Assembly: GCF_003334335.1 (NCBI RefSeq)
Contig: NZ_QOWQ01000022.1
Reading direction: 5' to 3' (one strand)
From: Escherichia coli
Lineage (GTDB): Bacteria > Pseudomonadota > Gammaproteobacteria > Enterobacterales > Enterobacteriaceae
Length of the DNA: 64,000 nt
The position numbers and the translations under genes are program-made. The notes below the pieces were generated by a model that was not told the origin of the DNA, made no database searches, and saw nothing but the letters and a program-made list of their open reading frames with translations. Shown here one piece after another: positions 8,563-61,242 of the stretch. How positions within the stretch are numbered: the first letter of the stretch is position 1; the number at the start of each line of letters is the position of its first letter.

Positions 8563-9846
8563 ATGGAATCCCTGACGTTACAACCCATCGCTCGTGTCGA
8601 TGGCACTATTAATCTGCCCGGTTCCAAGAGCGTTTCTAACCGCGCTTTATTGCTGGCGGCATTAGCACACGGCAAAACAGTATTAACCAATCTGCTGGAT
8701 AGCGATGACGTGCGCCATATGCTGAATGCATTAACAGCGTTAGGGGTAAGCTATACGCTTTCAGCCGATCGTACGCGTTGCGAAATTATCGGTAACGGCG
8801 GTCCATTACACGCAGAAGGTGCCCTGGAGTTGTTCCTCGGTAACGCCGGAACGGCAATGCGTCCGCTGGCGGCAGCTCTTTGTCTGGGTAGCAATGATAT
8901 TGTGCTGACCGGTGAGCCGCGTATGAAAGAACGCCCGATTGGTCATCTGGTGGATGCGCTGCGCCTGGGCGGGGCGAAGATCACTTACCTGGAACAAGAA
9001 AATTATCCGCCGTTGCGTTTACAGGGCGGCTTTACTGGCGGCAACGTTGACGTTGATGGCTCCGTTTCCAGCCAATTCCTCACCGCACTGTTAATGACTG
9101 CGCCTCTTGCGCCGGAAGATACGGTGATTCGTATTAAAGGCGATCTGGTTTCTAAACCTTATATCGACATCACACTCAATCTGATGAAGACGTTTGGTGT
9201 TGAAATTGAAAATCAGCACTATCAACAATTTGTCGTAAAAGGCGGGCAGTCTTATCAGTCTCCGGGTACTTATTTGGTCGAAGGCGATGCATCTTCGGCT
9301 TCTTACTTTCTGGCAGCAGCAGCAATCAAAGGCGGCACTGTAAAAGTGACCGGTATTGGACGTAACAGTATGCAGGGTGATATTCGCTTTGCTGATGTGC
9401 TGGAAAAAATGGGCGCGACCATTTGCTGGGGCGATGATTATATTTCCTGCACGCGTGGTGAACTGAACGCTATTGATATGGATATGAACCATATTCCTGA
9501 TGCGGCGATGACCATTGCCACGGCGGCGTTATTTGCAAAAGGCACCACCACGCTGCGCAATATCTATAACTGGCGTGTTAAAGAGACCGATCGCCTGTTT
9601 GCGATGGCAACAGAACTGCGTAAAGTCGGCGCGGAAGTGGAAGAGGGGCACGATTACATTCGTATCACTCCTCCGGAAAAACTGAACTTTGCCGAGATCG
9701 CGACATACAATGATCACCGGATGGCGATGTGTTTCTCGCTGGTGGCGTTGTCAGATACACCAGTGACGATTCTTGATCCCAAATGCACGGCCAAAACATT
9801 TCCGGATTATTTCGAGCAGCTGGCGCGGATTAGCCAGGCAGCCTGA
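8563..9846 (+). CDS. aroA: 3-phosphoshikimate 1-carboxyvinyltransferase (EPSP synthase), 427 aa
   Basis: ORF 8563..9846(+); [24 protein letters not shown]-terminus. Confidence 0.97.
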
Positions 9847-33400: not shown

Positions 33401-34048
33401 ATGAACTATCGTATTATTCCGGTCACCGCATTCTCCCAGAACTGTTCATTAATCTGGTGTGAACAAACCCGTCTGGCCGCACTGGTCGATCCTGGCGGCG
33501 ATGCGGAAAAAATCAAACAGGAAGTTGATGACAGCGGCCTGACACTGATGCAGATCCTGCTGACGCATGGTCATCTGGACCACGTTGGCGCAGCGGCGGA
33601 ACTGGCGCAACATTACGGCGTGCCGGTTTTCGGCCCGGAAAAAGAAGATGAGTTCTGGCTGCAAGGCTTGCCTGCGCAAAGTCGTATGTTTGGTCTGGAA
33701 GAGTGCCAGCCGCTGACGCCAGATCGTTGGCTGAACGAAGGCGATACCATCAGCATAGGGAATGTGACTTTACAGGTGTTACATTGCCCTGGGCATACGC
33801 CGGGTCATGTCGTGTTTTTTGATGATCGGGCAAAGCTGCTGATTTCTGGCGATGTTATTTTCAAAGGCGGAGTAGGGCGCAGTGACTTCCCGCGTGGCGA
33901 TCATAATCAACTGATTTCTTCAATCAAAGATAAATTGCTGCCACTGGGGGATGACGTGATATTTATTCCGGGTCACGGACCATTATCCACACTTGGTTAT
34001 GAACGCCTGCATAATCCCTTCCTGCAAGACGAAATGCCCGTCTGGTAA
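33401..34048 (+). CDS. gloC: metallo-beta-lactamase fold hydrolase (glyoxalase II-like), 215 aa
   Basis: ORF 33401..34048(+); THGHLDHVG metal-binding motif. Confidence 0.88.
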
Positions 34049-34110
34049 GGCACATAAAAAAGCCCGCTTTTAATGCGGGCCTGGATTTCTGGCAAAGTGC
34101 GCTTTGTTTA

Positions 34111-34210
34111 TGCCGGATGCGGCACGAGCGCCTTATCCGGCCTACAAAATCGTGCAAATTCAAAATATTGCAGGGGACGCGTAGGCCTGATAAGCGTAGC
34201 GCATCAGGCA
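34111..34210. repeat. REP/BIME-type extragenic palindromic element (two inverted REP units) between gloC and aspC
   Basis: GCCGGATGCGGCACGAGCGCCTTATCCGGCCTAC and inverted GCGTAGGCCTGATAAGCGTAGCGCATCAGGCA. Confidence 0.8.
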
Positions 34211-34269
34211 ATGTTGCGTTTGTCATCAGTCTCAGCCCGCTTTTCAGCGGGCTTCATTGTTTTTAATGC

Positions 34270-35460
34270 TTACAGCACTGCCACAATCGCTTCGCACAGC
34301 GGAGCCATGTTATCTGGTGTCATCCCGGCCACATTTACGCGACCAGAAGCAACCGCATATACGCCAAACTCTTCGCGCAGACGCAGCACTTGTTCTTTTG
34401 TCAGGCCACTGAAGGAGAACATGCCGTTCTGTTTGATGATAAAGCTGAAGTCGCGGTTTGCGCCTTTTTCCTGCAGCGTATTGACGAACAACTGACGCAT
34501 ACGCTGAATACGCTGGCGCATATCAGTCAGCTCTTGTTCCCAAATCGCACGTAACGCATCGTTGCTCAGGATGGTGGCAACAACAGAAGCGCCGTGTGCT
34601 GGTGGGTTAGAGTAGTTAGCGCGAATCGCCGCTTTCATTTGGCTGAATGCGCGATCAACGGTTTCACTGTCGGCAGCAACCAGAGTACAAGCGCCAACAC
34701 GCTCGTTGTACAGGCCAAAGTTTTTAGAGTAGGAACTGGCAACAATCAGCTCTTTATGCATAGCCGCGAAAGCGCGCAGTCCTTCAGCATCTTCTTCCAG
34801 ACCACGGGCAAAACCCTGGTAAGCGAAGTCAAACAGCGGTAACCAGCCTTTCTCAACGGAGAGTTGTGCCAGTGTTTGCCATTGTTCCAGCGTAGGGTCG
34901 ATACCGGTTGGGTTATGGCAGCAGCCATGGAACAGCACTACGTCGCCAGCCTGAGCTTCATTCAGGCTGTTAATCAGTGCATCGAAGTCAAGAGTGTGAT
35001 TTTCCGCATCATAATAAGCGTATTCACGAACTTCCAGACCTGCAGAGTTAAAGACGCTCTTATGGTTCGGCCAGCTTGGGTTGCTCACCCACACACGCTT
35101 AACGCTGGTATTTTTTGCCAGGAAATCGGCAGCCACGCGTAGTGCGCCAGTGCCCCCCGGAGTCTGTGCCGTGCGAGCACGTTTGTCATTGATCAGGGCG
35201 CTACCTTTACCAAACAGCAGTTCCTGAGTGCAGCGACCAAATTCAGGGATGCCGTCAATGCCGAGGTAATTTTTGGTGGTTTCATTTTCGAGCAGATACT
35301 GTTCAGCCTTTTTCACGCTGGTCAGTACCGGGGTTTTGCCCGTCTCATCTTTATAGACACCAATCCCGAGGTTAATTTTGCCGGGACGTTCATCGGCACG
35401 AAACAGATCGGCCAGGCCCAGAATCGGGTCGGCAGGAGCGGCGGTAATGTTCTCAAACAT
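34270..35460 (-). CDS. aspC: aspartate aminotransferase, 396 aa
   Basis: ORF 34270..35460(-); [23 protein letters not shown]. Confidence 0.97.
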
Positions 35461-53899: not shown

Positions 53900-54009
53900 A
53901 ACAGGTTCGGAAAACGTTTGCGTTTTTTTTGCCGCAGGTCAATTCCCTTTTGGTCCGAACTCGCACATAATACGCCCCCGGTTTGCACACCGGGAATCCA
54001 GGAGAGTTC

Positions 54010-55020
54010 ATGTACTACCCCTTCGTTCGTAAAGCCCTTTTCCAGCTCGATCCAGAGCGCGCTCATGAGTTTACTTTTCAGCAATTACGCCGTATTACAG
54101 GAACGCCGTTTGAAGCACTGGTGCGGCAGAAAGTGCCTGCGAAACCTGTTAACTGCATGGGCCTGACGTTTAAAAATCCGCTTGGTCTGGCAGCCGGTCT
54201 TGATAAAGACGGGGAGTGCATTGACGCGTTAGGCGCGATGGGATTTGGATCGATCGAGATCGGTACCGTCACGCCACGTCCACAGCCAGGTAATGACAAG
54301 CCGCGTCTCTTTCGTCTGGTAGATGCCGAAGGTTTGATCAACCGTATGGGCTTTAATAATCTTGGCGTTGATAACCTCGTAGAGAACGTAAAAAAGGCCC
54401 ATTATGACGGCGTCCTGGGTATTAACATCGGCAAAAATAAAGATACGCCAGTGGAGCAGGGCAAAGATGACTATCTGATTTGTATGGAAAAAATCTATGC
54501 CTATGCGGGATATATCGCCATCAATATTTCATCGCCGAATACCCCAGGATTACGCACGCTGCAATATGGTGAAGCGCTGGATGATCTCTTAACCGCGATT
54601 AAAAATAAGCAAAATGATTTGCAAGCGATGCACCATAAATATGTGCCGATCGCAGTGAAGATCGCGCCGGATCTTTCTGAAGAAGAATTGATCCAGGTTG
54701 CCGATAGTTTAGTTCGCCATAATATTGATGGCGTTATTGCAACCAATACCACACTCGATCGTTCTCTTGTTCAGGGAATGAAAAATTGCGATCAAACCGG
54801 TGGCTTAAGTGGTCGTCCGCTTCAGTTAAAAAGCACCGAAATTATTCGCCGCTTGTCACTGGAATTAAACGGTCGCTTACCGATCATCGGTGTTGGCGGC
54901 ATCGACTCGGTTATCGCTGCGCGTGAAAAGATTGCTGCGGGTGCCTCACTGGTGCAAATTTATTCTGGTTTTATTTTTAAAGGTCCGCCGCTGATTAAAG
55001 AAATCGTTACCCATATCTAA
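54010..55020 (+). CDS. pyrD: dihydroorotate dehydrogenase (quinone), 336 aa
   Basis: ORF 53983..55020(+) trimmed to [23 protein letters not shown] at 54001-54005. Confidence 0.95.
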
Positions 55021-61113: not shown

Positions 61114-61242
61114 TCGCAAAATAGTCGATTTAAACAGAGACAGCTGACAACGGTAAAATTGCCTGATGAACTGGGTTTATCAGGCATGAAAAACAACACT
61201 TTGTTAGTCATCTGTAAAATAGCGCATCATTAAGGAGTACCA

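Follow-up and report, generated by a model that had tools for sequence, protein, structure and literature searches.

A BIME-1 repeat between two copies of a terminator hairpin in the gloC-aspC spacer of Escherichia coli

The spacer between the convergent genes gloC and aspC of Escherichia coli carries a BIME-1 repeat of about 151 bp, a non-autonomous mobile element that very probably inserted in the terminator of the two genes, with the terminator hairpin copied on both sides, and that is probably mainly tolerated there. We analysed the element in a stretch of 64,000 nucleotides of E. coli DNA (contig NZ_QOWQ01000022.1 of assembly GCF_003334335.1), referred to here as the window. The gene order is ldtD-mepK-gloC, followed on the opposite strand by aspC-ompF; the convergent arrangement of gloC and aspC, as given in a preliminary description of this DNA, is borne out by the open reading frames and by the MG1655 annotation. 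From stop to stop (34048 and 34270) the spacer measures 221 bp and comprises, from left to right, an A-run, a hairpin, a 28-nt flank, a Y-type REP, a 34-nt linker, an inverted Z1-type REP, a 23-nt flank, a second hairpin and a T-run (Table 1). Positions 33750-34570 are 100% identical to BL21(DE3) and many other strains, and across 33990-34330 a single base, at 34077, differs from MG1655. Open reading frames of 49-140 amino acids that start in or cross the spacer on either strand were taken as chance occurrences because they traverse palindromic repeat sequence.

Table 1. Features of the gloC-aspC region, in window coordinates
Feature	Position	Strand	Sequence or detail	Basis
gloC (ycbL) CDS	33401..34048	+	stop codon 34046-34048	ORF list; MG1655 annotation b0927
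Rho termination region, peak	34024 (MG1655 984273)	-	antisense to gloC, Rho score 4.5	Adams et al. 2021, supplementary file 2
Duplicated terminator hairpin, left copy	34060..34082 (edges +/-2 nt)		AAGCCCGC-TTTTAAT-GCGGGCCT	terminator scan, direct repeat, empty alleles
BIME-1 outer left flank	34083..34110	+	GGATTTCTGGCAAAGTGCGCTTTGTTTA; family consensus CAGATTGTTGACAAAGTGCGCTTTGTTCA	paralog coverage and sequences, conservation profile
Y-type REP with CTAC tail	34111..34145	+	TGCCGGATGCGGCACGAGCGCCTTATCCGGCCTAC	match to published consensus (PMC11208160)
L linker with IHF-like site	34146..34179	+	34 nt	consensus match and Rfam ES036
Z1-type REP, inverse orientation	34180..34210	-	contains ATCAGGCCTAC	exact 30-mer consensus match
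BIME-1 outer right flank	34211..34233	+	ATGTTGCGTTTGTCATCAGTCTC	paralogs; conservation drops at about 34234
Primary aspC mRNA 3' end, MG1655 Term-seq	34230 (MG1655 984479)	-		Adams et al. 2021, supplementary file 1
Duplicated terminator hairpin, right copy	34234..34255		AGCCCGCT-TTTC-AGCGGGCT, then TCATTGTTTTT	terminator scan, empty alleles
aspC CDS	34270..35460	-	stop codon 34270-34272	ORF list and MG1655 annotation
Rho termination region, peak	34288 (MG1655 984537)	+	antisense to aspC, Rho score 3.1	Adams et al. 2021, supplementary file 2

REPs were typed by matching to the Y and Z1 consensus sequences as quoted in PMC11208160, together with a fuzzy scan. The Y unit (34111-34145) departs from its consensus by four substitutions, all in the loop region, and the Z1 unit (34180-34209, minus strand) is identical to its consensus GCCTGATGCGCTACGCTTATCAGGCCTACG at 30 of 30 positions. 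Both qualify as REPs (palindromic units), being imperfect GC-rich palindromes of 30-40 nt with a conserved GTAG/CTAC foot, and each folds stably into a hairpin whichever strand is taken (-13 to -19.5 kcal/mol, z -2.6 to -3.7). Y (GCCGGAT...ATCCGGC) and Z1 (GCCTGAT...ATCAGGC) differ by a G/T exchange that is compensated inside each unit, indicating that the conserved structure is the individual REP hairpin; the entire spacer can in addition fold as one long hairpin, far better than shuffled sequences (z -4.9 and -5.5). The linker holds an IHF-like site ATTCAAAATATTG at 34158-34170 with one mismatch to the consensus WATCAANNNNTTR, which is kept across 24 aligned BIME-1 copies, and the column identity of the linker in this alignment is mostly 0.8-1.0.

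The 221-bp spacer contains one Y and one Z1 only, extragenic and in single copy, without a tandem array. According to PMC3333891, a BIME-1 consists of one y and one z1 unit with a long conserved L linker and frequently an IHF site, and occurs in single copies. On all sequence-level criteria the element at 34111-34210 is a BIME-1 (RIB/RIP), and its linker probably binds IHF, by analogy with what is reported for the family. Consensus matching found no Z2 unit within six errors anywhere in the window, and therefore the element is not a BIME-2; the short S linker and the tandem amplification that mark BIME-2 are likewise absent from the locus. The two inverted REP units and the BIME-like module that the preliminary description had proposed thus hold up against the published consensus and can be refined to BIME-1, the IHF-associated class, whereas the suggested binding of gyrase is mainly a feature of BIME-2, for which strong binding is reported. 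Within the window this is the only REP pair with the GGCCTAC tail. A separate REP-like palindrome at 61160-61185 (TGCCTGATGAACTGGGTTTATCAGGC) has Z-type stem arms and lacks this tail.

The repeated unit is larger than the two REPs. We aligned 24 copies, namely that of the window and those of 23 distinct sites from metagenome contigs, found through a Z1 29-mer. Conservation sets in sharply at about 34081 and drops just as sharply at about 34234, and the unit is therefore about 151-152 bp long (34083-34233), with the consensus CAGATTGTTGACAAAGTGCGCTTTGTTCA - Y - L - Z1 - GTTTTGCGTTTGTCATCAGTCTC. Its outer flanks CAGATTGnTGACAAAG and CTTTGTCATCAGTCTC form an imperfect inverted repeat, and we equate them with the motifs that Gilson and co-workers named 'A' and 'B'. 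With terminal inverted repeats, a small non-coding core and flanking direct repeats, the element displays the traits of a MITE. A 241-nt spacer query matches at 4-44 places per genome (median at least 21) in all 5426 complete E. coli genomes, and the 150-nt unit (34084-34233) is covered to at least 80% somewhere in every one of them, again at a median of at least 21 places. Genomes without the element at gloC-aspC have full-length copies of 84-91% identity elsewhere as their best matches. The paralogous sites include fepA-entD, gcd-cueO, satP-mog, yvcK-uvrB and a site beside glpD. The sequence is thus a repeat present throughout the species, in line with the preliminary description, and not unique to this locus.

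The hairpins on both sides of the unit are two copies of one terminator. Comparison of the filled and the empty allele reveals that the hairpin of about 22 bp lies on both sides of the unit in the filled allele, and the two copies have an identical 11-nt direct repeat in common (AGCCCGCTTTT at 34061-71 and 34234-44). In the alignment to the empty allele the right copy can also be written AGCCCGC-TTTTC-AGCGGGCTT. The predicted folding energies are -12.9 (plus strand) and -14.1 kcal/mol (minus strand) for the left hairpin and -14.6 and -16.5 kcal/mol, respectively, for the right one. Two additional hairpins had been noted before. The first is found where it had been placed (34062-34080, here extended to 34060-34082), but the second occupies 34234-34253 instead of the 34241-34262 given earlier, a shift of about 8 nt to the left, and the two are copies of the empty-allele terminator rather than independent features.

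The same footprint is observed at other BIME-1 sites. At satP-mog the element is found in 467 of the 5426 E. coli genomes; K-12 and others are empty and have one hairpin GATCCCCCCGCTCGGGGGGAT, which stands on both sides of the element in the filled allele, its left copy already decaying. Together with gloC-aspC this gives two pairs of filled and empty alleles. In Pseudocitrobacter a BIME-1 occupies the gloC-aspC spacer in the opposite orientation, between two copies of that genome's own, different terminator GGCCGCGAAAGCGGCC, and we regard it as an independent insertion. More generally, 12 of the 23 distinct BIME-1 sites have flank-to-flank direct repeats that score above the 99th percentile of a control in which left and right flanks from different sites were paired (observed scores 12-23; control mean 6.2, maximum 12). 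The duplications are 16-27 nt long, with 0-3 nt between them and the unit, and each is a complete palindrome down to its basal A/T pairs (e.g. AAACGCCGGAGCAATCCGGCGTT). At the remaining 11 of the 23 sites no clear duplication was detected; five of these have a one-sided hairpin, and the intra-operon site fepA-entD has none. As a pattern, the duplicated-terminator footprint of BIME-1 is well supported. We found no mention of it in the literature covered, the primary papers of the 1990s lying outside that scope, and it may be the only aspect with possible novelty, the element and the locus being ordinary and already known in kind.

A further insert was noted in the gloC-aspC spacer of Entomohabitans teleogrylli (L076, 3148-3377). 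It is about 150 bp long and has no recognisable REPs; its ends (TAGATTGATGGC... and ...GCTTTGTCAGCAGT) resemble the BIME-1 outer flanks, it holds a central perfect IHF consensus AATCAATTTATTG, and the local terminator hairpin stands on both sides of it in a perfect duplication of 25 nt. The corresponding sequence of Tenebrionibacter (L081) has a similar right end. The Entomohabitans insert may be a REP-less relative of BIME-1.

The full spacer, i.e. the filled allele, is present in 2823 of 5426 E. coli genomes (about 52%), and the locus is covered to at least 80% in 5040; the short allele accounts for about 2217 genomes (41%), a number obtained as the difference of these two and not as a direct count, since BLAST joins split pieces. 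The residual 386 or so genomes (7%) include other variants, such as insertions of IS621 and a tandem duplication of 26 bp. The short allele, as sampled in O157:H7 and four further strains, consists of a spacer of 49-50 bp with a single bidirectional terminator, e.g. CATAAAAAAGCCCGCTTTTCAGCGGGCTTCATTGTTTTT. A variant of it in E. coli strain 401656 (L006, 550-600) has a 75-bp spacer with a 26-bp tandem duplication AACGCTTACAGCACTGCCACAATCGC across the aspC stop region. In 78 other species in which gloC and aspC converge, the spacer has a median length of 57 bp and does not exceed 110 bp in 69 of the 78, and these spacers typically hold one terminator composed of an A-run, a hairpin and a T-run. 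The general enterobacterial state is one bidirectional intrinsic terminator within about 50 bp, common to gloC and aspC.

Several other spacers are longer. In Enterobacteriaceae bacterium LSJC7 (L064, 3148-3491) the gloC-aspC spacer is 342 bp long and includes about nine units of a (GCCAGA)n microsatellite, and a related spacer of 284 bp (L071) lacks the microsatellite. Single Y-like REPs lie beside the terminator in three Citrobacter spacers (L010, L028 and L031), and a REP pair is found in Leclercia (L021), suggesting that the gloC-aspC spacer has been colonised by REP-type repeats several times independently.

E. albertii and the divergent Escherichia genome E69 carry the long allele at the same site and in the same orientation, so that the insertion may be old. 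Between E. albertii and the window the BIME core is 97% identical and the flanking genes 83-92%. A recent transfer from E. coli to E. albertii was considered, but the genes on either side have diverged to the extent usual between species; the insertion may also be old and have been lost later in some genomes, the site may have been hit more than once, or the repeat may have been homogenised. The distribution in E. albertii, E69 and E. coli, together with the perfect 11-nt direct repeat on either side of the insert, raises the possibility that the long allele is ancestral in Escherichia and that the short alleles are precise excisions or deletions by recombination between the hairpin copies, the direct repeats then being a cause of loss. 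Work by Bachellier from 1997, cited in PMC1187871, reportedly describes 'excisions of a whole BIME-1'. We consider this a serious possibility with the balance somewhat against it: deletion accounts for the loss of an element but not for the origin of two hairpin copies, the single hairpin and short spacer are the state of 69 of the 78 outgroup species, and the filled satP-mog allele is confined to the 467 genomes mentioned above. Moreover, the two hairpins of each lineage resemble that lineage's own empty-site hairpin, with the loop TTTCG in E. albertii and TTTT or TTTC in E. coli. Insertion and later deletion can both be true, and part of the short alleles in E. coli could have arisen secondarily, by precise deletion between the copies of AGCCCGCTTTT.

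In the preferred reading, insertion into the terminator, gloC and aspC would originally have shared one bidirectional terminator made up of A-run, GC hairpin and T-run, which BIME-1 then would have entered, leaving a full copy of the hairpin of about 22 bp on each side. As the duplication always comprises the whole palindrome and its length varies with the hairpin, the target appears to be recognised as a structure, and integration is probably directed by the hairpin or cruciform itself. Cuts would be placed at the two sides of the hairpin, which are adjacent in an extruded cruciform and 16-27 bp apart in the linear duplex.

More tentatively, and with slightly less than even confidence, we propose that BIME-1 elements are MITE-like transposons that are mobilised through their outer flanks, and not by RAYT at the REPs, and that integrate at the base of terminator palindromes, thereby duplicating the hairpin. 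The target would perhaps be an extruded cruciform or a hairpin in single-stranded DNA, and strand cuts on either side of the palindrome would duplicate the whole hairpin of 16-27 bp. The REP-less insert of Entomohabitans fits such a mechanism. To our knowledge, neither a transposase for the BIME-1 outer flanks nor a parent IS is known. If true, the proposal would explain why BIME-1 elements are located at the 3' ends of transcription units and why they are tolerated, each neighbouring gene retaining a hairpin, and it would provide the movement of REP/BIME elements with a concrete footprint. In vitro, RAYT cleavage has been mapped to the REP feet and not to the unit ends (PMC3333891). According to one review, REPs 'do not display MITE signatures' (PMC3184786), and a 2026 preprint describes the insertion mechanism of REP/BIME elements as 'not fully established' and suggests semi-random insertion.

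The insertion has rearranged the termination signals of both genes, which in the short allele rely on a single hairpin with a U-tract in either direction. The left hairpin is preceded by an A-run (34056-34061), so that hairpin plus U-tract occur only on the minus strand, where they form an intrinsic terminator (34082-34060, tail TTTTTTATGT) that would serve as the distal terminator of aspC; on the plus strand the hairpin at 34234-34253 with the tail TCATTGTTTT would be the distal terminator of gloC. The hairpin copy proximal to each gene runs on into the element and lacks a U-tract; a stable hairpin remains just after each stop codon. Since the matching U-tract lies beyond the element, the canonical terminator would be reached only after the BIME has been transcribed.

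Mapping of the gloC and aspC 3' ends had been proposed in the preliminary description. Published MG1655 Term-seq data, converted to window coordinates with an offset of 950249, place the primary 3' end of aspC 4 nt past the aspC-proximal hairpin and upstream of both REPs on the aspC transcript; for gloC, which appears weakly expressed, the curated MG1655 table lists no 3' end. Because the aspC end lies at the duplicated hairpin and not at a REP, the stabilisation of upstream mRNA by the REPs, which had also been suggested, gains no support at this locus. The end at 34230 would reflect weak termination at the proximal hairpin or the stop of a 3' exonuclease. Rho termination regions are found beyond the spacer on both strands (Table 1), which suggests that some transcription on either strand runs through the entire spacer and would be stopped by Rho inside the opposing gene. 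Position 34077 (MG1655 984326) is G in the window, in BL21 and in most strains and T in K-12 MG1655, where it breaks a G-C pair of the left hairpin and reduces its predicted stability on the aspC strand from -14.1 to -7.9 kcal/mol. As the window lacks this weakening SNP, read-through into gloC may be lower than in MG1655, and data from K-12 may overstate the leakiness for other strains.

Could the element nevertheless be kept by selection as a 3'-UTR module, its REP hairpins raising gloC and aspC mRNA by terminating transcription in both directions or by blocking exonucleases? The REP hairpins at the locus are stable on both strands, and the presence of REPs between convergent genes goes along with higher expression of both partners, 78 REPs being found inside predicted bidirectional terminators (10.64898/2026.03.23.713779). 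The BIME core is also more conserved between E. coli and E. albertii than the neighbouring genes, but recent copying within a repeat family, or gene conversion among its members, would also produce a high core identity. With the mapped aspC 3' end preceding both REPs, with no global effect of terminal REPs on half-life (10.64898/2026.03.23.713779), and with the element missing at this locus from about 41% of E. coli genomes, by subtraction, and from most other genera, such a function appears unlikely.

A role at the level of the DNA, in which an IHF-bound bend or a topological barrier between the convergent units would explain the position of the element, appears quite unlikely. The conservation of the IHF-like site at 34158-34170 across copies and the reported binding of IHF to the BIME-1 linker are consistent with it, yet the site has a mismatch to the consensus, almost half of the strains manage without the element at this locus, and a preference of the insertion for terminators explains the position equally well.

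The linker was finally compared with Rfam, where family RF02751 (ES036, CssrF) matches 34146-34188 with 53 bits against a gathering score of 37.6. That the linker is a genuine small RNA gene, with the REPs as its processing or stability signals, is very improbable despite this score, given that the same model matches the linkers of nine other BIME-1 copies at unrelated loci, that the predicted stem is weak (-5.3 and -3.6 kcal/mol, z -2.3 and -1.6), that the curated Term-seq table has no 3' end in the linker or between 983121 and 984479, and that a sequence scan found no promoter-like site in the gloC-aspC spacer. Because of the matches to unrelated linkers, the model describes the repeat and provides no evidence of a gene here; judged by these alignments, the ES036 'sRNA' family is in effect the BIME-1 linker. 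A literature search on ES036 and on the aspC/ycbL terminator returned nothing relevant. Two further kinds of Rfam match in the spacer fell below their gathering scores and were set aside: Trp_leader (25.8 bits), which is just the terminator hairpin, and naRNA4 (20-30 bits), which is a single REP. A full naRNA4 (CssrE, RF02564, 81 bits) lies at 9100-9177 of a metagenome contig (L149) that also holds a BIME-1 with a perfect 23-nt hairpin duplication, illustrating that the 'Cssr' families of Rfam are pieces of REP/BIME elements. Elsewhere in the window, at 53942-54015 on the plus strand, Rfam identifies a PyrD leader (RF02373, 97.9 bits), which is expected upstream of pyrD.

The most economical reading is that of selfish or neutral mobile DNA. 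The element would be mainly tolerated, with small local effects, since each gene regains a protective hairpin through the insertion. As read from the DNA, it would bring with it a site of the IHF type and a landing pad for IS621, and it would contribute about 170 nt of 3' UTR in which the two transcripts could overlap. Expression may be affected to a modest degree that depends on context. The finding itself matters little, as this is one among many BIME-1/RIP repeats of E. coli. With filled and short alleles in about 52% and, by subtraction, about 41% of genomes, and with published 3'-end and Rho data for the filled allele, the locus is a convenient test case of the effect of a BIME on convergent genes. 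The recurrent hairpin footprint, if undescribed, is a usable mark of the integration of REP-derived elements.

Compared with known systems, the element is identical in kind to the BIME-1 of the literature (RIB, 'reiterative ihf BIME', or RIP). It has the same Y and inverse Z1 units, L linker and IHF-type site, is present in single copy, measures about 140-150 bp with the outer flanks and, like the family, is extragenic at gene 3' ends and variable in presence between isolates; the duplicated host hairpin is the added feature, in a comparison to which the primary papers of the 1990s were external. BIME-2 elements, Y/Z2 tandems that bind gyrase strongly and adjoin the RAYT gene yafM, belong to the same REP superfamily and have a similar extragenic location, but the locus has neither Z2 nor the short S linker nor tandem amplification. 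IS621, an element of the IS110 family with a bridge-RNA recombinase, is separate and uses the BIME as a landing pad: the Z1 REP carries its natural target ATCAGGCCTAC (PMC11208160). It is absent from the window. In E. coli strain 6817 (L007, 3435-4716) IS621 lies in the Z1 REP of the gloC-aspC BIME, at the AG/CT core of ATCAGGCCTAC, corresponding to window position 34184, and in strain A8 the spacer match is interrupted at that same position. Alleles broken by an IS may therefore amount to a few percent of genomes.

REPIN/RAYT systems, i.e. REP doublets served by a Y1 HUH transposase acting on single-stranded DNA, likewise consist of inverted REPs that form a long hairpin, are non-autonomous and reach high copy numbers. 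In contrast to these, the 16-27-nt duplications seen here abut outer flanks that lie outside the RAYT cleavage sites at the REP feet. The 'peel and paste' transposition of the IS200/IS605 type leaves no target duplication. Closer in build are the MITEs with an IHF site, such as the Correia elements, which are likewise intergenic and about 150 bp long, with imperfect terminal inverted repeats, a central IHF site, the capacity to form one long hairpin and flanking direct repeats; ERIC is another bacterial MITE with an IHF site. Classical MITEs produce a short target duplication of fixed length (e.g. TA), whereas at the BIME-1 sites described here the whole palindrome is duplicated, with a length that varies with the hairpin.
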